Below, piece after piece: positions 2,833 through 64,000 of a DNA stretch of 64,000 bases; position 1 is the first letter of the stretch, and the number at the start of each line of letters is the position of its first letter. Source of the DNA: Candidatus Falkowbacteria bacterium CG10_big_fil_rev_8_21_14_0_10_37_14 (GTDB taxonomy: Bacteria; Patescibacteriota; Patescibacteriia; Patescibacteriales; Patescibacteriaceae); the NCBI GenBank assembly GCA_002778705.1, contig PFAM01000004.1, positions 20,109 to 84,108 on the forward strand. The letters are read 5' to 3'. The notes under the pieces were generated by a model, which did not search any database, was not told the DNA's origin, and was given only the letters and a program-made list of their open reading frames with translations. Made by a program: the position numbers and the translations under genes.

Positions 2833-3925
2833 TTATGGCTTGGTAGCGTTATAGAGAGCTGAAACCTCAGTAGATGATAAAGCGCGATTATAGATACGAA
2901 GATCACTAAAAACACTGTTATCAAAAGCTGCTGCCCCCCAAGCCCCTAATCGTAACGAATTAAATGTAGGTATCGTACCACTAAAATTTAAACTACTTTT
3001 ATAAGATTCGTCTAAATAAGACTCCGCTTTAGATCCGGTAACGACCATAACATAATGATGCCAATTGTTTTCTAAAACATTTTGTAATGTAATAAAATTA
3101 ATTTGACCACCAGTCCCAGCAAGATCAATAGCATGATAAAGGTGGGTTGCATCCTGTCTCCATATAGCCAATTGTTTTGATGCTATAGTTCCGTAAGTTA
3201 ACCAACCAGTGTAATGACTAAGATACGGCCCCGGCTTCACCCAAAAAGACACAGTAATGTAATTATTAAAATTACCAGTGGAATTAATGAATAAATCAAT
3301 ATAATTATTAACCCCATTAAATTCATAAGCTCCACTAGCTTCGCCAAAACGGCCAGTACTAGTAACAATAGTTGATGTGCCCATTGTTAAAGCACCATTG
3401 TTACCACCACCGCTCAAATCTTTAGTACCAGTGACTCCATCAAGCATCCACCAACCAACTAAACCATTGGTGGGGCCGAGATCTCTGGCTTGCCCACCCT
3501 TTTCCATTTTTCTCGATCCGGCTGGAACATCGCCAACAGCCTTAGACAAGCAACCGATTAAAGAATAATTATCATTGCCGGCGGAGTATTGATATTCTAA
3601 ATCAGCACAAGCGCCTTCAGCTCTTGGCGTTGGGTTATTTGGCACTTTAGCCATGTAAGTTTTAGAACCGTCAGCCGAAACCAATGGTTGACCAGGGGTA
3701 ATGATATTTGGGTAAGCAGTATAATCAGCATAATACATCTCTAGAGCGGTAGAGATTTGCTTCATATCTGAAATTCTTTTAGCATCGCGGGCTCTAGTGC
3801 GAGCACCGTTAACAGCCACGGTCGCTAAAGTCGCCAAGACGCCGATAATAACGATGACAACTAATAATTCAATTAATGTAAACCCTCGTCGTGTGAGGGG
3901 GGGCTTTGTGAGTCATATTAGACAT
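2833..3925 (-). CDS. Prepilin-type N-terminal domain protein with C-terminal LamG/concanavalin-like domain (paralogue 1); frame interrupted at a C7 tract
   Basis: In-frame RRGFTLIELLVVIVIIGVLATLATVAVNG prepilin helix. The C-terminus ...LRIYNRALSSTEVSALYNA is typical of Laminin_G_3 domains. The only upstream ATGs (3925, 3916) are one nucleotide out of frame across the C7 run at 3897-3903. No ATG/GTG/TTG precedes TTG 3837 in the pilin frame. Confidence 0.7.
3897..3903 (-). repeat. C7 homopolymer in the 5' coding region of pilin-LamG paralogue 1
   Basis: Plus strand shows ggggggg. C6 or C9 would fuse ATG 3925 to the pilin frame, giving MSNMTHKAPLTRRGFTLIELL. Confidence 0.9.
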
Positions 3926-3933
3926 ATGAGATT

Positions 3934-3962
3934 ATTATAGCACGGATGAATGGGGGGGCAAA
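3934..3962 (-). promoter_or_regulatory. Candidate sigma70-type promoter of pilin-LamG paralogue 1 (TTGCCC-N16-TATAAT, TGC-extended -10)
   Basis: Minus strand reads TTTGCCCCCCCATTCATCCGTGCTATAATAATCTCATATG. The -10 lies 8 nt from the ATG. Confidence 0.45.
3952..3958 (-). repeat. C7 homopolymer inside the -35/-10 spacer of the same promoter
   Basis: Plus strand shows ggggggg at 3952-3958. Confidence 0.9.
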
Positions 3963-3969
3963 TAGCGTT

Positions 3970-4305
3970 TTATTTTAACAATTTTTTTATAGCTTTTTTC
4001 AGTTCCGGCAAATTATTCTGAATATATTTCCAAACTTCATCGGCGTCCACATCAAAATATTAATGTATTAAAAAATTTCTAGCATCGGTAATGTCTTACC
4101 AAACTATTTCAGGATGCATTTTTTTATATTGCTCTGAAATATTTTTAGAAGCTTCGCCCATTATTTCAAACCTTCTAACTACGGCATCAATCAAATATGG
4201 AGTATTTACAAAAAACTTTCTATCGTATTTTTTAAGATATTTTTCTACCAGTATAATACTGTCTAAAATGTGCTCAAGATAAACCCTGTCTAGTTTTTTA
4301 GCCAT
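3970..4305 (-). pseudogene. HEPN (DUF86) toxin gene with two in-frame TAA stops
   Basis: Translation: MAKKLDRVYLEHILDSIILVEKYL...HPEIVW*DITDARNFLIH*YFDVDADEVWKYIQNNLPELKKAIKKLLK*. It is colinear with the intact paralogue at 63418-63750 (...IPWRNIAGMRDIVIHEYFDVDLNHAWE...). The stops are at 4096-4098 and 4060-4062. Confidence 0.8.
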
Positions 4306-4591
4306 AGATTTTAATCAAGTCATTTTCTACATATTTTTTAACTCGCTTATTTAAACTCTTGAAAGTCCCTAGATCCACAACCCGCTTGGTCACGACTTCC
4401 AAATCTCGTTTTAAATTAACCATAGCTAAAAGGCCACCGGCATTTTTTTTAAATTCTATTAATAAATCAATGTCGCTATTTTTTTTATAATCACCTCTAG
4501 CATAGGAACCAAAAACAGCAGATTTTTTTACATCATATCTACTTAAAATCGGAGCACTATCTTGCTTTAATTTTTCAATTCGTTTATCCAT
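4298..4591 (-). CDS. Minimal nucleotidyltransferase (MNT) antitoxin-type protein
   Basis: FGSYARGDYKKNSDIDLLIEF (GSxxRG...DxD) motif. It overlaps the HEPN gene by 8 nt. ATG 4591 (MDKRIEKL) is the preferred start. Confidence 0.8.
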   Translation of the reverse strand: MDKRIEKLKQDSAPILSRYDVKKSAVFGSYARGDYKKNSDIDLLIEFKKNAGGLLAMVNLKRDLEVVTKRVVDLGTFKSLNKRVKKYVENDLIKIYG

Positions 4592-4646
4592 AAAGCAATT
4601 ATAGCAGAAGTTACAGGAAACAACAAACAATATGGCTATCACCCGT

Positions 4647-15611: not shown

Positions 15612-16076
15612 TTATCTAGTAACAGAAATCACTTCACCTAATTCGGCGTCAGGAGCATTGACAGTAATGCGTCCATTGGCAGACTTCTTAATCATATAGC
15701 CAACACCATTGGTAGCGCACGCAGTAGGACAAGAAGGGTCTAGTGGTACAGAGGTGAAATAAGTTTCATTAGTAGTTAAAGCGGTTAACTCGGCTAATGA
15801 ACCTGTAGAACAGGTAGTAGTAGCAACGCCGGTTACACAAACCTCAAGCGCAGTATTTGTAATAGAAGTTGGTAAAGTGCCATTGTTGTCAATCGCATAT
15901 TGATGAACAGCGTTTAAAATAGTGTTAACATTGCTCCAACGTTGAGTATTTCTAGCTTGTGCCAATTGTTTGGCTGGGTTAATGGCAATAATTACGATGG
16001 AAGCTAAAATGGCAATAATGCCGATAACCAGCAAAACTTCCACCAAAGTAAAGCCGATATTTTGTTTGTGGCTCAT
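15612..16076 (-). CDS. Type IV (major) pilin-like protein, tandem paralogue 1
   Basis: [50 protein letters not shown]: a G/FTLVE prepilin cleavage motif plus a hydrophobic helix. The C-terminal half carries paired cysteines. Confidence 0.85.
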
Positions 16077-16150
16077 AATTTAATCTTAGTTGGTTATAAT
16101 TTTTATTAAGTATAGTCTCCAACCTCTTTAAACCATACTCTATTTTTTTA

Positions 16151-16179
16151 ATTTTACAATATTTTTTAAAAACTAGCAA
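16151..16179 (-). promoter_or_regulatory. Candidate promoter TTGCTA-N17-TAAAAT for pilin paralogue 1
   Basis: Minus strand reads TTGCTAGTTTTTAAAAAATATTGTAAAAT. Confidence 0.4.
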
Positions 16180-16193
16180 AGTTGTTAAAAGTA

Positions 16194-16658
16194 TTAACGA
16201 GTAACACTAATCGTCTCTCCTAATTCAGCACCTGGTGCAGCTACAACAATGCGACCATTGGCAGATTTCTTAACGGTATAACCAAGACCACTGGCATTAC
16301 AACCAGTTGGACAAGTTGGATCACCAGGGATGGCTGTAAAATAAATTTCATTATCTGTTAAAACTCTTAAGTCGGCTAAAGAAGCACCAGAACAAGTGCT
16401 GGTAATAGCACCGTTAGCACAAATCTCTTTGGTGGTGGTCGCAACGCCGACTGGCATAGCACCTTTATTATCAATAGCGTATTGGTGAATGGCATTCAAA
16501 ATAGTATTCACATTACTCCAGCGTTGAGTATTTCTGGCTTGTGCTAACTGTTTAGCGGGGTTAATGGCGATAATTACAATAGAGGCTAAGATAGCGATGA
16601 TAGCTATAACCAATAAAACCTCGACTAAAGTAAAACCTGTGTGTTGTTTTTTGTTCAT
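16194..16658 (-). CDS. Type IV (major) pilin-like protein, tandem paralogue 2
   Basis: [50 protein letters not shown]. The first ~60 residues are near-identical to its neighbours. Confidence 0.85.
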   Translation of the reverse strand: MNKKQHTGFTLVEVLLVIAIIAILASIVIIAINPAKQLAQARNTQRWSNVNTILNAIHQYAIDNKGAMPVGVATTTKEICANGAITSTCSGASLADLRVLTDNEIYFTAIPGDPTCPTGCNASGLGYTVKKSANGRIVVAAPGAELGETISVTR

Positions 16659-16676
16659 ATTGAAGATTATTTATTA

Positions 16677-17168
16677 CTAACGGGTAACGCTAATTGCTTC
16701 TCCTAATTCAGCATCAGGAGCCGAGACAACAATACGACCGTTATTTGTTTTTTTAACAGTATAACCAACTCCATTGGTATTGCAGACAGCCGGGCAACTA
16801 GGATCAATAGGAATCGCAGTAAAATATGTTTCATTATCAGTTAAAACACGGATATCAGCTAAAACCGAGGATGCACAAGTAGTAGTAGCTACACCATTGT
16901 TACAAATTTCTTGGTTGACCAGAGTCACACCACTCGGCAAAGTGCCCTTATTATCAATGGCATATTGATGGATAGCATTAAGAATCGTATTAACATTACT
17001 CCAACGCTGAGTATTTCTAGATTGGGCTAATTGTTTTGCTGGATTAATAGCAATAATTACCACTGAGGCTAAGATGGCTATGATACCTATCACCAAAAGA
17101 ACCTCGACTAAAGTAAAGCCTTGCTTTATCAAAAAGACTTGAGACGAGTCTTTGATTTTTTTGTTCAT
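16677..17168 (-). CDS. Type IV (major) pilin-like protein, tandem paralogue 3
   Basis: ...[47 protein letters not shown]. The leader is longer than in the other two paralogues. Confidence 0.85.
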   Translation of the reverse strand: MNKKIKDSSQVFLIKQGFTLVEVLLVIGIIAILASVVIIAINPAKQLAQSRNTQRWSNVNTILNAIHQYAIDNKGTLPSGVTLVNQEICNNGVATTTCASSVLADIRVLTDNETYFTAIPIDPSCPAVCNTNGVGYTVKKTNNGRIVVSAPDAELGEAISVTR

Positions 17169-50275: not shown

Positions 50276-50839
50276 CTAGTCAACTAAACAATGGTTATCA
50301 AGACATGTGTAATTTGTTGGGCAACTTTGCACATTAGTACAAACTCCTCCACAACCATCAGCGCCAGTATTAGGCACTCCATTATAAACCCCTGTATTAC
50401 AAGACATAAAACAATTAGGTAAACAAGTAACAATATCACCAGGAACAGCCGTATTAGCCCCTGCACCAACATCACTAGTTTTATTACCCAAACAAAAACT
50501 TAAGCTATAAGAAGCACCATTTTCATCTTGGCTATAAGTATAAGTGGTAGTGGCCGTGCAACCGTTATCCACAGGCTGTGGATTAAAAGGCACATGAGGT
50601 AAATAAGTTGTTAAACTATAGCTTAGAGGACTCCCAGCGGTAATGGTGGTTGGATACATACCAACATCACGATAAAAACTTTCCAGAGCACCTTGAATTA
50701 AACGAATATCGGTAATTCGCTTACCATCACGATTAGCCATACGCAAAGATGATAAAGTTTTAACCGTCAAGGCGGTTAAAATAGACATGATTACAATAGC
50801 TAAAAGTAGCTCTAAAATAGTAAAACCTGTTTTTTTCAT
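50276..50839 (-). CDS. Type IV pilin-like protein with a Cys-rich C-terminal extension
   Basis: MKKTGFTILELLLAIVIMSILTALTV...RDGKRITDIRLIQGALESFYRD. The C-terminus has many Cys residues (CLPNCFMSCNTG...CGGVCTNVQSCPTNYTCLDNHC). Confidence 0.8.
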   Translation of the reverse strand: MKKTGFTILELLLAIVIMSILTALTVKTLSSLRMANRDGKRITDIRLIQGALESFYRDVGMYPTTITAGSPLSYSLTTYLPHVPFNPQPVDNGCTATTTYTYSQDENGASYSLSFCLGNKTSDVGAGANTAVPGDIVTCLPNCFMSCNTGVYNGVPNTGADGCGGVCTNVQSCPTNYTCLDNHCLVD

Positions 50840-50844
50840 AAAAC

Positions 50845-51309
50845 TTAATAAGAAACAGTACCAGCGGGCATAGCCCGATTATTGCCAGCGGATAAATCTC
50901 CCGCATCATCACCTAAACAAAAATCTAAATGATAGGAAGTGCCGTTAGCGTCATTGGAATAAACATAAGCAGCATCGCTTGGACAAGAGCCGTCGGCTGG
51001 CTGGGGATAAGTCGGCAATTCTTCCATATAAGTTATGGATCCTGAAACCAAAGAATTGCCAGCCACCAAATTTGCAGGATAGACACCTTGATCACGATAA
51101 TAAGCGCGCAAAGCTGATTGCATTTGTGTTACATGAATAATGCGGGTAGAGTCACGAGCACCAGAACGCATCCAAGAAAAAACCCGAAAGACCATGGTGG
51201 CCAATAAAGCCAGAATGGCGATGACAGTTAACATTTCCAGTAATGAAAAACCTGAGCTTATCGAAAGGTTAGTGCGATTATTTAACATACGAAAATTAAT
51301 CTTGGACAC
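50845..51309 (-). CDS. Type IV pilin-like protein
   Basis: ...SSGFSLLEMLTVIAILALLATMVF...RDSTRIIHVTQMQSALRAYYRD. Confidence 0.8.
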   Translation of the reverse strand: MSKINFRMLNNRTNLSISSGFSLLEMLTVIAILALLATMVFRVFSWMRSGARDSTRIIHVTQMQSALRAYYRDQGVYPANLVAGNSLVSGSITYMEELPTYPQPADGSCPSDAAYVYSNDANGTSYHLDFCLGDDAGDLSAGNNRAMPAGTVSY

Positions 51310-52375
51310 AACGGACGCTGTAATAATTATTAACAGTAGCAGATGTTTGAGTTACTACGGGACTGTCGTCAGATATTTTAATATAATTATTATCAGAGGT
51401 CCATAAACGATTCTCGGTATTTCTGCCACCCGTAACAGCTGAAGGTAAAATTTCATGATAGCCGGCGCCCACAGCATTAAACTGCGCCCAGCCAGTAGCA
51501 TTAGCAGGCGTGGTCCAATAAGTATTATCTGGCATTTGATTAGTTCTTAGTTTGTAGCCAGGGTCTGTGCCTAAAAAGGTATTGAAAGCTGTAAACTCTT
51601 CTGTAGTTGGCACGTGCCAACCACTAGGGCAAAGACTGGCAAGCATAGTTCCTTTGTATAAAAGACCGACATCATTAACTGTTCCAGAGTCTTCGCAAGG
51701 TGCACTAGAACAAACTCCAGTACTAGCAGCGTATAAATAATGGCTTGTGTCCATATCTCCAGCTGTATAAGTTAAACTAGCTGTGGTTTTTAAGTTGCTG
51801 GCAAACCAACATTCCCCAGAATCTTGCTGACCATTAGGGATAATGTCATACCAAACTAAATTGTAATTATTTCCCGATAAGTCAACAGCACTATTTCCAC
51901 CAGTTGGGCAGGTAGGACCAGGTGATTGCAAATAGCTGATATTAGCATCAATTTTAATCGTGGTGGCACCGACCGCACAACGACCAGTAGTACAACTGCC
52001 AATAGACCTTAAAGTCATCGAATTGCCAGATGGCAAACCGCCATACTCTACAGAATAAGTACAACTATTATCAAGACTGATGACAGTGCCTGCTTCACCA
52101 GGTTGTCCACAAGTTCCCAAATTGGGGATTAGATATTGCCCCGGCTGGCAGTTAGTAGCGTAATTGCCAAGCTGACCGTAAACCGCTTGTCGTAAACCAG
52201 TCTCGGCCGCCGAATAAGCAGGGATATCACAAGAACCAACACCATAAGCTCTTAAGCGAATAATGACCGAGGTCATCATAAACAAGGCTGCCAACATAAC
52301 GGCCGACATAGCAAAAACCGTGGAGCCTAGCATACTACCCTGATGACTCGAATGTAACCAAGTAAAATGTTTCAT
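51296..52375 (-). CDS. PilX-like minor pilin fused to a FISUMP (Fibrobacter succinogenes major paralogous, TIGR02145-type) domain (module B, position 4)
   Basis: N-terminus HQGSMLGSTVFAMSAVMLAALFMM...YSAAETGLRQ. C-terminus CWFASNL...GLLYKG...CPSGWHVPTTEEFTAFNTFLG...FNAVGAGY...RLWTS...YYSVRCVQD. Confidence 0.7.
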   Translation of the reverse strand: MKHFTWLHSSHQGSMLGSTVFAMSAVMLAALFMMTSVIIRLRAYGVGSCDIPAYSAAETGLRQAVYGQLGNYATNCQPGQYLIPNLGTCGQPGEAGTVISLDNSCTYSVEYGGLPSGNSMTLRSIGSCTTGRCAVGATTIKIDANISYLQSPGPTCPTGGNSAVDLSGNNYNLVWYDIIPNGQQDSGECWFASNLKTTASLTYTAGDMDTSHYLYAASTGVCSSAPCEDSGTVNDVGLLYKGTMLASLCPSGWHVPTTEEFTAFNTFLGTDPGYKLRTNQMPDNTYWTTPANATGWAQFNAVGAGYHEILPSAVTGGRNTENRLWTSDNNYIKISDDSPVVTQTSATVNNYYSVRCVQD

Positions 52376-52402
52376 AAAAAAATTATTAATAAAATCATTA
52401 TA

Positions 52403-52948
52403 TCATTGTAAAGGCGTATTGGTAATAGCTGTCTGATAATAAACCGATTCATTAGCATTTTTAGTAGAAGTAGCTGATAAACGAATGGCCACGGTGCTAC
52501 TATTACTAGTTAGGGTATCAAAATATATTTTGTTAATAAAAATATCTGCCGAAGTAATGGTGTAGACAGAAGCTAAACGCTGAGCAATTAAACGACCATT
52601 AGTAACATAATATTGGACGCAAACATCTTTATTATCCAACACACAAAGTTTGTTTTTAATACCAGGGGCGACACTATTAACACAAAAATAAGTATCAGAA
52701 GAGCAAGAACAATAAGCGGAACACTCAGCGGCGATAAACTTTTTAGATTTCTTAGTTTCATCAGTTAAGACACCTAAAGCATAACGCAAATCGCCTTCCA
52801 GATTTTGCTGATTGGTAATTTTATCTTGGACATCCATCACCCGTAAAAATACTCTAGTAATTGCCAGGGCAAGTATAGCAAATAAGCTGACAGCAACTAT
52901 TAGTTCAATCAGCGTTAAAGCTTGGTGATGATTTTTAATTGGTGTCAT
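52403..52948 (-). CDS. Minor pilin, PilW/GspJ-like (module B, position 3)
   Basis: HHQALTLIELIVAVSLFAILALAITRVF. Confidence 0.65.
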   Translation of the reverse strand: MTPIKNHHQALTLIELIVAVSLFAILALAITRVFLRVMDVQDKITNQQNLEGDLRYALGVLTDETKKSKKFIAAECSAYCSCSSDTYFCVNSVAPGIKNKLCVLDNKDVCVQYYVTNGRLIAQRLASVYTITSADIFINKIYFDTLTSNSSTVAIRLSATSTKNANESVYYQTAITNTPLQ

Positions 52949-53552
52949 ATAACCTGGATAATACTTGACTAGTGTGTCCCTTACCTCGCTCCTCCCAATA
53001 AACTTTCACAATAACATTGATAAATTTTTTAGAATCTGGGGCATTAGGATCATAACTAACTTCAAAATAACGATAAAAAGGTGTATCAGAACCGGAAGTT
53101 CGTTGATAAAATGATGGAGTGGTGGAAGCAATGTCAGCACTTAATTTAAGGCGAGCGGTGCTAGTAGCCGGAAAAAGGCTGGCAAGAGCAGGCGTGATCT
53201 GAGTACTAGAAACAGTGGCTCGATTAGAGGTTGGCACATTAGTCCAATCAAAAACTACAATATGAGCACAAGGACCGGTATCACAAGGAGCCGTTGTAGT
53301 ACTAATTAAACCACTAGCGAAACTGATACTACCAACTACATTTTCATTACGCATGGCTTCGGCCAATTCCACACCCTCCCGTAACAACCCTTGGGCGATA
53401 AAATCGTTTTTAATAACATTTTCCATTTGTAAACTGCGAGTGGTTAAACTCATCACACCGACAAAAACCACTGCCACCATAGCCACAATTAAAATGACCT
53501 CTATTAAAGAGAAGGCGAAGACAGGTTTTGATTTGGAATTGATTAAAGGCAC
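52935..53552 (-). CDS. Minor pilin, PilV/GspI-like (module B, position 2), GTG start
   Basis: KPVFAFSLIEVILIVAMVAVVFVGVMSL...REGVELAEAMRNEN, homologous to the 44283-44972 product. Confidence 0.65.
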   Translation of the reverse strand: MPLINSKSKPVFAFSLIEVILIVAMVAVVFVGVMSLTTRSLQMENVIKNDFIAQGLLREGVELAEAMRNENVVGSISFASGLISTTTAPCDTGPCAHIVVFDWTNVPTSNRATVSSTQITPALASLFPATSTARLKLSADIASTTPSFYQRTSGSDTPFYRYFEVSYDPNAPDSKKFINVIVKVYWEERGKGHTSQVLSRLYDTN

Positions 53553-53702
53553 AAAAACAATTTTTAATTTTGTAATTTTTAATTTTTAAATAAACAAATC
53601 TAATTTTTAATTTTTTAAAACACGAGAGCAATATCTTGGTATTTATTTTGAAAATTGAAACATTATTTTGAAATTAAAAATTTGAAATTTGAAATTTTTT
53701 CC
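53553..53702. repeat. Low-complexity AT-rich intergenic element related to the TTGGAAAT/TTTGAAAT repeat family
   Basis: aatttttaattttgtaatttttaatttttaaataaacaa...cttggtatttattttgaaaattgaaac...ttgaaattaaaaatttgaaatttgaaatttttt. Its layout resembles copies A and B. The 18-mer taatttttaaataaacaa recurs at 57415-57432. Confidence 0.45.
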
Positions 53703-54938
53703 CTATGGTGTTGTTGTAGCGCTAATTAAGCCAGAGGGCCAGATCCGAAAAGACTTAGGCGTATAACCAGGATAACCTTTATTAGAACCACCTCGATTAA
53801 CAGTTATGATGGCCGAATCTTCAGTGGCACTGGCGCCATTGATTCTCATTAAATAATCGGCTGGCGAAAAGAAAACATCAATAGTGCTGGTGATACTGGT
53901 TGTGGCTCCGATACTATTAACGCTATAAAACTTATCAAAAACGGGACCAGGCGGTAGTTTAACCTCTTGATATTTTTCTTCATCAGCACTGTAAAGTTTG
54001 GTGGGCGGAGTAAAAGATTGATACCAAGGCGCCCAGTCTTTCACAAAACGAATTTCATCGACGCTGCCAGCAAATGTAGCACTGCCAATATTTAAACTGG
54101 AGCCTGAATCATAATACATTTCGGTAGTAGTACCTATTTGTAAAACATCTTTGGCTTTACCGTCTACAAAAATTTTAATAAACTGCCGATCCCTAACGGC
54201 AGCAACATGATGCCAGACATTGGTAGCTAAAGTAGTAGTAGAAGATGAGCCAATTTCATACCAGACGCTACCCGAAGTTCTAAAACCAAAACGAGCTGTA
54301 GTTGTTGTTCCGGCAAGATTCACGCCGACATAAAAGCTATTTGACTTTTCGGCAATTTTTTGTAAACTGCCACTAAAACTTGTCATTTTAAACCAAAAAT
54401 CTATCGCAAAACTACTGGTGCCGGTATTAAAGTCTTGGTGATTAGGAATAGATAAATAATCGCTAGCATCAAAAGTCCAGTGATCACCACCAACACCACT
54501 AGGAGCACCGCCCCCGCTAGTGTTAATAGGAGTAGCGTTTTTAGTCACAGTTTTAGTGGTAGTTGCGGTGCTAGACACCGAACTGTCAAAAAAAGTTGTG
54601 CCAGAAACCACTTCTGTCCCGTGGATTAAAAGCTTGGTTGGGAAATCATAGTTTTGACTGCCATTTAAATCACCATAGGTAATATATTTACCACCGGGAC
54701 GATTAAAATAGACTCCCCAACCATAAGGTGCTTTATCAGCCGAAAGCATCCGACCGTTTAACGCAAAGTTTTGAGCAACACGGACTTGCTCACGCATTTT
54801 ATCGCTGACCGCCACAATCTCCCCGCTATCGTTAATCTCATTAAAGTTAGCGTAAACCACCACCGAAATAATCACGATGATTGAGATAGTGATGGCAATT
54901 TCAATAAGGGTAAAAGCTTGTTTGGCGGTTTTTAGCAT
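53703..54938 (-). CDS. Minor pilin, FimT/GspH-like, with a LamG/concanavalin-like C-terminal domain (module B, position 1)
   Basis: MLKTAKQAFTLIEIAITISIIVIISVVV. The C-terminal part has WHHVAAVRDRQFIKIFVDGK and GSVDEIRFVK, typical of Laminin_G_3 domains. Confidence 0.7.
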   Translation of the reverse strand: MLKTAKQAFTLIEIAITISIIVIISVVVYANFNEINDSGEIVAVSDKMREQVRVAQNFALNGRMLSADKAPYGWGVYFNRPGGKYITYGDLNGSQNYDFPTKLLIHGTEVVSGTTFFDSSVSSTATTTKTVTKNATPINTSGGGAPSGVGGDHWTFDASDYLSIPNHQDFNTGTSSFAIDFWFKMTSFSGSLQKIAEKSNSFYVGVNLAGTTTTARFGFRTSGSVWYEIGSSSTTTLATNVWHHVAAVRDRQFIKIFVDGKAKDVLQIGTTTEMYYDSGSSLNIGSATFAGSVDEIRFVKDWAPWYQSFTPPTKLYSADEEKYQEVKLPPGPVFDKFYSVNSIGATTSITSTIDVFFSPADYLMRINGASATEDSAIITVNRGGSNKGYPGYTPKSFRIWPSGLISATTTP

Positions 54939-62303: not shown

Positions 62304-63326
62304 TTATCTGGTGGCGTTATAGAGAGCGGAGACTTCAGCGGCGGACAAAACTCGATCATAAATACGAACATCTGACACATACCCAAGCGACTGAGTGAAT
62401 AGATTTATAGTTGAGGCTATAGCGACGGAAGTAACAGCTAAGCCATTGCCGGAAACTACATAATTATTATCAACATAGATCTGCTTATAACTATCAGACC
62501 CTCTAAAGACAAAGCCTACAAAATGCCAGGTACCATCCTGTAAATTAACATAACCATATTGATATAAACTATTATGAGCATACAACAGCATATTATTTGT
62601 TGTTCCGTGTACTAATTTTAATCCTTGTGACCAACTAGAAATTAAATATTGCTCATTTTGAACTCCTATCTTAACCCAAGCAAAAACAGAGTAAGTGTAG
62701 TTAGCCGGCGTTTGTGCCCAATTAAAATTAGGTACGCTTAAATAAGAACCCCCACCACCATCAGAATAATAACTTCCATTTGCCTCACCAAATCTGCCAG
62801 TACTCGTACTAATGCCGCCAATAATTGTCGCCGTCTTACCGCCTGCCAAATCTTTCGTGCCATTTATTCCATCCAACATCCACCAACCAACTAAACCATT
62901 GGTGGGGCCGAGATCGCGAGTTTGTCCACTTTTTTCTATTCTTCTGGCGCCGGCTGGAACATCGCCAACGGCTTTAGATAAACAACCGATTAAAGAATAG
63001 TTATCATTGCCGGCAGCATATTGATAATCTAAATCAGCACAAGCACCCTCGGCTCTCGGGGTTGGGTTATTAGGCACTTTGGCCATATAGGTTTTAGAGC
63101 CGTCGGCCGAAACCAATGGTTGACCAGGGGTAATAATACTCGGGTAAGCCGTGTAATCAGCATAATACATCTCAAGTGCTGTCGAGATTTGTTTAAGATC
63201 GCTAATGCGCTTGGAGTCTCTAGCTCTAGTGCGGGCACCATTAACGGCTACGGTCGCTAAAGTTGCCAAGACGCCAATAATGACGATGACGGCTAATAAT
63301 TCAATTAGGGTGAAGCCTTTTTTTAT
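62304..63326 (-). CDS. Prepilin-type N-terminal domain protein with C-terminal LamG-like domain (paralogue 2); no canonical start codon
   Basis: The frame reads ATA AAA AAA GGC TTC ACC CTA ATT GAA = (I/M)KKGFTLIELLAVIVIIGVLATLA.... The first ~140 residues are about 90 percent identical to paralogue 1 (13 substitutions counted by eye), and the C-terminal domain is divergent but ends VRIYDRVLSAAEVSALYNA. A TAA lies 5 codons upstream of the ATA. Confidence 0.7.
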   Translation of the reverse strand: MKKGFTLIELLAVIVIIGVLATLATVAVNGARTRARDSKRISDLKQISTALEMYYADYTAYPSIITPGQPLVSADGSKTYMAKVPNNPTPRAEGACADLDYQYAAGNDNYSLIGCLSKAVGDVPAGARRIEKSGQTRDLGPTNGLVGWWMLDGINGTKDLAGGKTATIIGGISTSTGRFGEANGSYYSDGGGGSYLSVPNFNWAQTPANYTYSVFAWVKIGVQNEQYLISSWSQGLKLVHGTTNNMLLYAHNSLYQYGYVNLQDGTWHFVGFVFRGSDSYKQIYVDNNYVVSGNGLAVTSVAIASTINLFTQSLGYVSDVRIYDRVLSAAEVSALYNATR

Positions 63327-63417
63327 AGTAAATTGATTTTACCACACATCCCTAAAAAACAAAAGCCAGCCTTACAGCCGGTTCGGTGGTTATTTTTAAA
63401 ATTTATCTTGTGTGCAG

Positions 63418-63750
63418 TTATTTTAATAATTTAATCAACTCTCTTTTTAATTTCGGTAAACCAATTTTAGCTGTCTCCCAAGCATGATTTAAATCGACAT
63501 CAAAATATTCATGAATTACAATATCACGCATACCGGCAATGTTACGCCAAGGGATATTAGTATTTTGCTTTCTAATACTCTCGGGGATATTTTTAACAGC
63601 TTCGCCGATAATACCGATGCGTCTAATGACCGCGTCTTGTTTTTCTTTGTCAGCTAAAAAATCTTTTTTGCTAACACCATCAATATACTCAGCGACGACT
63701 TCAATACTTTCTAAAATATGCTGAATATAAATTTGAGGATTTTTGATCAT
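63418..63750 (-). CDS. HEPN (DUF86) toxin-type protein, intact
   Basis: 110 aa with an R-x4-H motif (MRDIVIHEY). It overlaps the MNT gene by 4 nt. Confidence 0.8.
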   Translation of the reverse strand: MIKNPQIYIQHILESIEVVAEYIDGVSKKDFLADKEKQDAVIRRIGIIGEAVKNIPESIRKQNTNIPWRNIAGMRDIVIHEYFDVDLNHAWETAKIGLPKLKRELIKLLK

Positions 63751-64000
63751 ATAATTTTAACCAAATCTTTCATAACATAAGTTTTGATAGCCGGCCTTAA
63801 AGCCGCTTTAGTTACCAAGTCAACCTCACGCCCCATAGCATCTTCTAAAGTAAATTTTAAACCGGCCAAATCAAATAAAGTTTTGCCTTTACCAAAATCT
63901 ATGAGTAAATCGATATCACTCTTAGCAGTAGCTTCGCCACGAGCAAAAGACCCAAACAAGCTGGCGCTTTTGACCCCTTGCTGTTTTAAAATCTTTTTTA
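63747..64000 (-). CDS. Minimal nucleotidyltransferase (MNT) antitoxin-type protein, 5' end outside window
   Basis: ...KKILKQQGVKSASLFGSFARGEATAKSDIDLLIDF.... The frame stays open to the window edge. Confidence 0.8.
   Translation of the reverse strand, partial: KKILKQQGVKSASLFGSFARGEATAKSDIDLLIDFGKGKTLFDLAGLKFTLEDAMGREVDLVTKAALRPAIKTYVMKDLVKII

Follow-up and report, generated by a model that had tools for sequence, protein, structure and literature searches.

A pilin-LamG gene out of frame with its start codon

The 64-kb window analyzed here ("the window" being this whole stretch of DNA) comes from an uncultured groundwater bacterium, a Candidatus Falkowbacteria of the CG10 genome series. The minus strand of the window carries a frame-broken gene (here called copy A) whose predicted product is a type IV pilin with a lectin-like (LamG) domain at its C terminus. 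The features of the locus are collected in Table 1. Read directly from the sequence, the promoter comprises a -35 hexamer whose last three C residues begin a run of seven (the promoter tract), a 16-nt spacer whose length is fixed by that run, and a TATAAT preceded by the TG of an extended -10 element. In a promoter scan TTGCCC-16-TATAAT was the top-ranked promoter-like site in the region, with 10/12 matches in addition to the TG. A leaderless-type ATG follows the -10 box, and a second run of seven C residues (the coding tract) is placed at codons 8–10 of the ATG frame. The original prediction, made from the letters of this stretch, had described the hexamers, spacer, start codon and both tracts, and its reading was exact to the base; it had overlooked the extended -10 element.

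In the present C7 allele the ATG frame terminates after 18 codons to give the product MSNMTHKAPPHTTRVYIN, while the prepilin sequence RRGFTLIELLVVIVIIGVLATLA is encoded in the next frame. This pilin frame is open from 3912 on, past a TGA at 3915-3913, and offers no ATG, GTG or TTG before TTG 3837. Both the early stop and the lack of a start codon in the prepilin frame had been predicted and were reproduced here. Public annotation of copy A begins only at TTG 3837, yielding a 334-aa "hypothetical protein" (PIT96399.1, COT94_00350). We considered this TTG as the true start and rejected it, as its product is without the helix and the 17 codons upstream of it have changed as coding DNA does when read in the pilin frame. 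The ATG at 3925 is instead the predicted true start of copy A, because a leaderless-type start just past the -10 box is the norm in this family. When one C was deleted in silico from the coding tract the ATG frame read MSNMTHKAPLTRRG↓FTLIELL (the arrow marks the cleavage site), which is the prepilin leader that had been expected from a C7-to-C6 change. The repaired product matched Pfam N_methyl (6e-8) and Laminin_G_3 (9e-14).

The repaired N-terminus (...TRRG↓FTLIELL) has the class III signal peptide motif, which calls for a short leader of basic character, then Gly or Ala at position -1, Phe at +1 and Glu at +5; the present DNA encodes this motif in a frame other than that of the start codon. 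The repaired leader has 14 residues, in a family where leaders range from 4 to 58 residues. The mature pilin-frame product of 350 residues was modeled by AlphaFold with a predicted local distance difference test (pLDDT) score of 88 and a predicted template modeling (pTM) score of 0.84, and the model has a 52-residue N-terminal helix (residues 4–55), a small beta domain and a jelly roll. A PDB sequence search showed that the helix resembles pilins and GspG, and the Foldseek matches of the jelly roll are lectin-type receptor-binding and carbohydrate-binding modules. These matches and the model indicate that copy A encodes a putative type IV pilin whose C-terminal domain is lectin-like; the protein plausibly serves as an adhesin with a role in attachment.

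Runs of seven G or C had been described as conspicuous in this DNA. No G/C run of at least 7 other than the two tracts occurs in the window, and a count of two is what chance would give, as a first-order Markov model expects 2.2. It is their pairing that is rare, since two such runs fell within 100 nt of each other in just 3 of 300 Markov simulations (~1%). A hairpin, CCCTC-ACACGAC-GAGGG, begins at the 3' end of the coding tract. A paralogue described below (copy C) retains its stem with another loop (AGTCAGA); the 3' arm doubles as coding sequence for Arg-Gly of the cleavage site, and conservation of the stem in copies A and C may come from coding constraint. No Rfam families or tRNAs were found in the window.

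Table 1. Coordinates of the copy A locus and of other features in the 64-kb window
Feature	Position	Strand	Remarks
-35 hexamer TTGCCC of copy A	3961-3956	-	Last three C residues are the start of the promoter C7 tract; direct sequence reading
Promoter poly-C tract, C7	3952..3958	-	Overlaps the -35 hexamer and the spacer; fixes the -35/-10 spacer at 16 nt
Extended -10 element TGcTATAAT	3934..3942	-	TG at 3942-3941, TATAAT at 3939-3934
Predicted start codon ATG of copy A	3925-3923	-	8 nt past the -10 box; leaderless-type start
Short out-of-frame open reading frame	3869..3925	-	MSNMTHKAPPHTTRVYIN and stop; product of the present C7 allele; 18 codons, TGA at 3871-3869
Coding poly-C tract, C7	3897..3903	-	Shifts the prepilin frame by +1; in frame with C6 or C9
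Hairpin	3883-3899	-	5-bp stem, N7 loop
Pilin-frame coding sequence of copy A	2833..3885	-	Starts with cleavage-site Gly-1 (G↓FTLIELL) and ends at the stop; 350 codons, zero internal stops
Laminin_G_3 domain (predicted)	2860..3312	-	C-terminal concanavalin-like lectin jelly roll; Pfam PF13385, 9e-14
Paralogue, copy B (COT94_00700)	62304..63344	-	Extended -10 TGgTAAAAT at 63336-63344, 9 nt, ATA at 63324-63326; intact 337-codon body
HepT-like toxin pseudogene	3970..4305	-	Two in-frame TAA (...EIVW-stop-DITDARNFLIH-stop-YFDVD...); adjoins copy A
MNT partner of the broken HepT	4298-4642		Intact
MNT/HepT pair	63418-63959		Intact; precedes copy B
Pilin gene cluster	50276-54938	-	
LamG pilin gene	53703-54938	-	Intact; 411 aa
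Fib_succ_major protein gene	51296-52375	-	In a pilin cluster
Pilin gene cluster	15612-17168	-	

The frameshift in independent Crystal Geyser assemblies

We read the copy A tract lengths in 12 of ~54 contigs. These 12 loci come from ENA and JGI assemblies of several Crystal Geyser samples and BioProjects that were built with MEGAHIT, SPAdes or the JGI pipeline, and they are consensus contigs in which minority variants are invisible. The coding tract was C7 in all 12 independent assemblies. The promoter tract was C7 in 11 of them and C8 in the remaining one (L185), where the spacer is lengthened to 17 nt; this is the allele that had been predicted from a C8 tract. Over ~39 kb of pairwise overlap the copy A assemblies differed by 1 single-nucleotide polymorphism (SNP) and 1 indel, the indel being the promoter C, and by this comparison the sampled population is near-clonal. 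The truncated 334-aa product was called on ~54 contigs, and the 90% cluster of copy A contains solely truncated calls (334, 334, 328 and 301 aa), with the next cluster 58% identical.

That the C7 is an assembly or sequencing error in what is really an ordinary intact C6 gene would suit the error-prone nature of homopolymers and the fact that public annotation never flagged a frameshift, but this is scarcely credible because the same C7 appears in 12 of 12 assemblies from several samples, BioProjects and assembly pipelines, no further indel occurs in the ~39 kb of overlap, and the ~54 contigs with a truncated product include no full-length one. Such an error could be rescued solely by a systematic platform artefact confined to this tract. 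The copy A frameshift is thus genuine, and the assembly error that the original prediction had named as one possible refutation is contradicted by these assemblies.

Two of the contigs have peculiarities of their own. In the low-coverage L002 the GAPDH gene is split by a run of N (a scaffold gap) and not by an indel. In L007 (positions 1-400) copy A, with C7 at both tracts and two SNPs in the gene, stands behind an RLAN-domain gene and not behind the MNT/HepT pair; the break in upstream context is located ~190 nt upstream of the copy A promoter.

Paralogues share a promoter with a variable C-tract

Copy B reads ATA AAA AAA GGC TTC, a would-be KKG↓FTLIELL, and is without an ATG, GTG or TTG until an internal TTG; members of its cluster are all a truncated 321-aa call. 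The ATA is most readily interpreted as a mutated start codon, because a start just past the -10 box is the family norm. Copy C (COT94_00290; L008 2349-2500, outside the window) has the promoter and leader of copy A: TTG-C6, a 16-nt spacer, TATAAT, 8 nt, and then ATG TCT AAT ATA CTT CAC AAA G-CCCTCCCC-TCA. Its coding tract, CCCTCCCC, comprises 8 nt interrupted by a T and leaves the gene out of frame by 2. The copy C tracts are identical in 4/4 loci.

Other paralogues have the same type of promoter. Copy D (P0134, 426 aa), P0002 and P0004 carry TTTG-C(n)-(T/G)AT(T)CATTT(A/G)TGA-TA(C/T)AAT, where n is 7, 8 or 9 and spacers measure 17–19 nt. The intact P0003 and a second gene on L179 have ATG CGT AAA GC/GG TTT located 6–8 nt past the -10 box, encoding MRKA/G↓FTLIELL. 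Altogether the TTTG-C(n) promoter is common to at least five diverged paralogous pilin-LamG loci with n ranging from 6 to 9, and each paralogue promoter that was read has a TGn extended -10. In this lineage's DNA six distinct G/C runs of at least 7 were seen, and all are at pilin-LamG 5' regions.

The promoter tract also varies at one and the same locus, with invariant flanks. At the PGI-side context locus it is C9 in 3 assemblies and C8 in 2 (L017 and L179), and other contexts have C7 and C9, all as read from consensus contigs. Four assemblies of the PGI context that share one gene body have just 3 variable columns over ~3 kb, one of which is the promoter tract (C9/C8). Tract variability grows with length: none of the C6 or interrupted tracts varied (4/4 invariant), as compared with 1/12 at C7 and 2/5 at C8/C9.

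Copy D has a frameshift allele on 7 contigs (L009 1-300) in which T4 has become T3 at GCT TTT ACT, the Ala↓Phe cleavage-site codons, with the body intact. The 426-aa P0134 gene, together with the lactamase and gyrA genes downstream of it, is found behind three upstream contexts (RuvC, PGI and FtsK; L010–L017), and divergence between contexts starts exactly at the TTTG-C(n) motif; the L015 contig ends inside the tract. The PGI-side promoter and leader is in turn joined to the P0134 body in L011, L012, L014 and L017 and to the P0002 body in L179, where the switch occurs ~150 nt into the open reading frame (ORF). These context swaps are either recombination between paralogues or chimeric assembly of short reads at a shared repeat of at least 200 nt.

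The leaders of D-type pilins are unusually long at 46–56 residues and end in ...KNSYGPA↓FTLIELL, with Ala at -1 (L010 2501-2670, L179 and L180), and the long leaders of P0134, P0002 and P0004 are conserved without indels. In P0004 the gene-caller start overlaps the -10 box, which makes the second ATG the likelier start. Two members of the family that come from other genomes, P0046 (MCX6793224.1) and P0120, begin after or inside the pilin helix (MAIIALGNARAKARD... and MVIVIIGILATLA..., respectively), and these may be further 5'-disrupted genes.

Selection on the coding bodies

The original prediction stated that the paralogue at 62.3 kb (copy B) differs mostly by silent changes and took this as an argument that the family is under selection. 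We estimated synonymous (dS) and non-synonymous (dN) divergence and their ratio (omega) over the 150-codon pilin domain by the Nei-Gojobori method. Copies A and B gave dS 0.82, dN 0.054 and omega 0.066, and copies A and C gave dS 1.06, dN 0.10 and omega 0.096. Omega of these disabled pairs is on par with that of pairs formed with intact paralogues, namely A-P0003 (dS 1.16, dN 0.065, omega 0.056) and A-P0002 (dS 1.04, dN 0.062, omega 0.059). The statement on silent changes is therefore borne out for the N-terminal 150 codons but fails for the LamG domains, which are near saturation with omega values of 0.4–0.9 and in which copies A and B are ~49% different at non-synonymous sites. As evidence of selection copy B contributes its low pilin-domain omega; that it has an ATA and no start codon had been missed.

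The same constraint is seen in the 17 helix codons that precede the annotated TTG. Between copies A and B they have 6 synonymous changes and 1 non-synonymous change, and between copies A and C 6 and 0, whereas the same codons read in the other two frames have 0–1 synonymous and 6 non-synonymous changes. Because these codons changed almost solely synonymously, the full prepilin was translated for most of the paralogues' history. Together with the omega values this pattern upholds the claim of selection on the family, and the copy bodies have been under past purifying selection. The disabled copies A, B and C have a single lesion apiece, placed at the extreme 5' end, and bodies that are intact over 337–355 codons. 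The promoter and leader DNA of copies A and C is 77% identical while 57% of their pilin-domain synonymous sites differ, which argues that the promoter-leader region is constrained too. Finally, 91% of the window is coding and dead genes are therefore unusual here.

Distant relatives and neighboring genes

Protein-guided scans of species-representative genomes and a metagenome collection yielded 160 loci, all of them relatives at 26–79% identity with full-length matches at ≤47%, and no census at strain level came from these collections. Upstream G/C runs are not enriched at these loci (0.07 vs 0.085 per kb) and the TTG-C(n) promoter is absent from them. The distant relatives, being without such tracts at these positions, weaken the original prediction. 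Two exceptions carry a G9, one in a promoter spacer (L100 1230-1265; TTAGAC-19 nt-TATAAT, with TGTGG before the -10 box) and one at a Shine-Dalgarno site 7 nt before the ATG (L093 1100-1130). An exact-pattern metagenome scan for the copy-A/C locus that allowed any tract length at both positions returned zero matches, with a pattern that fits the window and L001–L008. Judging from these comparisons, the tract system appears to be a trait of a close group of paralogues and not of the whole family.

Copy A adjoins a HepT-like toxin pseudogene that is represented by the same 69-aa call in other assemblies. The MNT partner of this HepT is intact, as is the MNT/HepT pair that precedes copy B. Elsewhere in the window there are at least 7 more pilin genes, among them an intact LamG pilin gene, and pilin genes form clusters at two places (Table 1). 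In the Fib_succ_major protein of one cluster a prepilin motif is not recognizable, and pilin genes alone were identified as pilus-system genes in the window.

Proposed slipped-strand switching and alternative explanations

We propose that copy A belongs to a multigene family of lectin-like type IV pilins in Crystal Geyser Falkowbacteria (Patescibacteria) that would be controlled by slipped-strand changes in C-runs. In several members the predicted promoter is of the sigma-70 type, with a C-run that begins within the -35 hexamer (TTGCCC) and fixes spacer length; a leader with a second C-run is common to copies A and C, and both runs are candidate slipped-strand hotspots. A change in the promoter run (C6 to C9) would alter promoter geometry, and the resulting spacer length would probably alter transcription. 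An additional base in the coding run of copy A would have moved the prepilin out of frame, with slippage having occurred at least once each in copies A and C, and MSNMTHKAP(P)LTRRG↓FTLIELL would come back into frame if the run lost one C or gained two. Copy A would thus be a slippage-type contingency locus that is OFF throughout the sampled population, and switching would be reversible at a useful rate. We favor this reading tentatively, with a confidence that stops a little short of calling it probable. Both copy A tracts sit where a change in length alters either the frame or promoter geometry, and polymorphism of the promoter tract in otherwise invariant surroundings was observed for copy A (C8 in 1/12), at the PGI locus (C8 versus C9) and across contexts (C7 to C9).

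Several observations weigh against switching. OFF alleles alone were found, as there is no in-frame copy A allele in the 12 assemblies read, in the calls on ~54 contigs or in the protein collection. The coding tract does not vary in length, and C7 is near the lower limit of tract lengths known to switch. The C8 alleles of L185 and L017 are on short contigs (~2.3 kb) where consensus error is possible, although a third C8 allele (L179) is on a 38-kb contig. The extended -10 element lessens dependence on the -35 hexamer and spacer, and should blunt any effect of spacer length. The lesions of copy B (ATA) and copy C (T-interrupted) would not be readily reversed by slippage, and they fit gene decay as well as switching. 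The HepT pseudogene is evidence of local decay, and the 160 distant loci described above give no sign of the tracts. The original proposal of phase variation consequently survives in part: the promoter tract is polymorphic between paralogues (C6–C9) and between assemblies (C7/C8 and C8/C9) and the coding tract of copy C differs, but the coding tract of copy A itself gave a uniform C7 without an ON allele. The same division applies to the suggested search for tract-length variants, where the promoter tract varies while ON/OFF switching at the coding tract is unproven in consensus contigs that hide minority variants.

The main alternative is that copy A is a recently inactivated pseudogene in a birth-and-death family, with the C-run merely inherited as its most mutable site and no adaptive switching. 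This is a serious contender that we nevertheless hold to be rather doubtful. Three paralogues with three different lesions, two of them beyond slippage repair, and a fourth (copy D) with a T4-to-T3 frameshift allele on 7 contigs are what such a family should contain; yet each of the three disabled copies has its single lesion at the extreme 5' end with no other defect in 337–355 codons, even though the copies are old (dS 0.8–1.1), omega is as low as in intact paralogues, and the helix codons before the annotated start are conserved as coding. The adjoining HepT with its two nonsense codons points to decay in the neighborhood, while the genome is compact at 91% coding. Likewise, conservation of the tracts does not extend to more distant relatives, but the promoter tract has been kept in at least five diverged promoters despite changed flanks. 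The uniform OFF state in all assemblies fits a pseudogene, and in a near-clonal sampled population its fixation says little on its age. The arguments against decay are weakened, though not removed, by survivorship bias, as older wrecks would be unrecognizable.

Another explanation, which we consider improbable, is that copy A is expressed at a low level without any change in DNA, either by +1 slippage of tRNA-Pro on CCC-C or by RNA polymerase slippage on the C-run, as could suit a tip pilin of low copy number. For tRNA-Pro the classic +1 slippery site is CCC-C, the 0-frame GCC CCC CCU presents an Ala-Pro-Pro stall context, and shifting by +1 at the second CCC yields precisely the MSNMTHKAPLTRRG↓FTLIELL of the repaired gene. 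Recoding would explain a selected body alongside constant C7 DNA, but spontaneous +1 slippage is usually at about the percent level when m1G37 and elongation factor P (EF-P) are present, which counts against it, and for copy B, which lacks a start codon, frameshifting is no cure. The 5-bp hairpin at the end of the tract (CCCTC-N7-GAGGG) is kept in copy C, as a recoding signal might be, but its stem overlaps codons constrained to encode Arg-Gly. We also considered and rejected a conserved programmed frameshift, which would require shifts of opposite sign in copy A (+1 at CCC-C) and copy C (-1 or +2 at the interrupted CCCTCCCC); a conserved recoding signal is unlikely because of this opposition.

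We see a similarly small chance that copies A, B and C are silent cassettes whose variable LamG bodies would reach expressed loci by homologous recombination, as those of Neisseria pilS do. The genes do have a conserved 5' part, a variable middle and a conserved 3' end (...RIYNRALS..E...LYNATKP). The joining of one PGI-side promoter-leader to both P0002 and P0134 bodies, and the P0134 body behind three contexts that diverge exactly at TTTG-C(n), are also in keeping with cassette exchange, but these swaps are possibly chimeric joins at the repeat of ≥200 nt in short-read assemblies. Moreover, copies A and C keep a complete promoter, ATG and 5' coding region, copy B has a -10 box and 5' coding region, and a dS of 0.8 between the pilin domains of copies A and B shows that these two have had no recent gene conversion.

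Precedents and implications

Among known systems, the promoter C-stretch of the Bordetella fim genes would be the closest precedent for the promoter tract. The Bordetella tract is located between the -10 box and the site for the activator BvgA and is usually 10–18 long in fim2 and fim3. In the promoter of B. pertussis fimX the C-stretch is C7 or C8 among strains, with a 3.8-fold difference in transcript (PMC1891110). Our paralogues resemble fim2, fim3 and fimX in having a C-run in the promoter of each fimbrial or pilin gene that gains or loses single bases, and the C7 and C8 of fimX are lengths found here. They differ in that the tract begins inside the TTGCCC -35 hexamer of an extended -10 promoter for which no activator is known, and in that the pili are type IV pili and not chaperone-usher fimbriae.

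Neisseria pilC, which has a poly-G in the signal-peptide coding region, is the closest precedent for the coding tract. As in pilC and in similar genes of Neisseria, Haemophilus and Campylobacter, a G/C homopolymer a few codons into a pilus-associated adhesin gene decides whether the rest of the ORF is in frame. Neisseria coding tracts are ~9–13 long with both ON and OFF alleles readily found among isolates, whereas the tract here is 7 long and OFF alone was seen. Among meningococcal strains even a C5/C6 tract varies (PMC5084427).

The family also resembles the vlp genes of Mycoplasma hyorhinis, in that a small-genome host-dependent bacterium has a multigene family of surface proteins with a promoter homopolymer of its own for each gene. 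In M. hyorhinis a poly-A between the -35 and -10 of each surface-lipoprotein gene leads to combinatorial expression, and switching has been shown experimentally; poly-A and lipoproteins there correspond to poly-C and pilins here. A likeness to Neisseria pilE/pilS is seen in the several non-expressed pilin copies, in variable parts placed between conserved parts and in the possible exchange of bodies. A promoter and a 5' coding region are missing from pilS but present in copies A and C, and recombination is no more than a possibility here.

Patescibacteria are thought to live attached to hosts, and the foremost candidate for finding and binding these hosts is the type IV pilus. In the literature on phase variation in Patescibacteria pilins we found no paper. 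If our reading is right, a mechanism of a known kind would be at work in a lineage and a gene family that are both new to it. A broader version, which we regard as unlikely, is that episymbiotic-type Patescibacteria possess a poly-C-gated contingency system of lectin-tipped pilins, with a promoter tract for each gene, a second tract in the leader of one subfamily, most copies silent but intact, and occasional exchange of bodies at the promoter-leader cassette; this would be the first case of phase or antigenic variation in the Candidate Phyla Radiation. Even if the disabled copies are mere pseudogenes, the real start and the frameshift go unrecorded in the public annotation of three paralogues, which are filed as "hypothetical protein". 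Should switching be true, it would be readable directly from metagenomic reads as tract-length spectra, and host range or avoidance of phages and predators in these bacteria would be ruled by the logic of stochastic switches known from mucosal pathogens.

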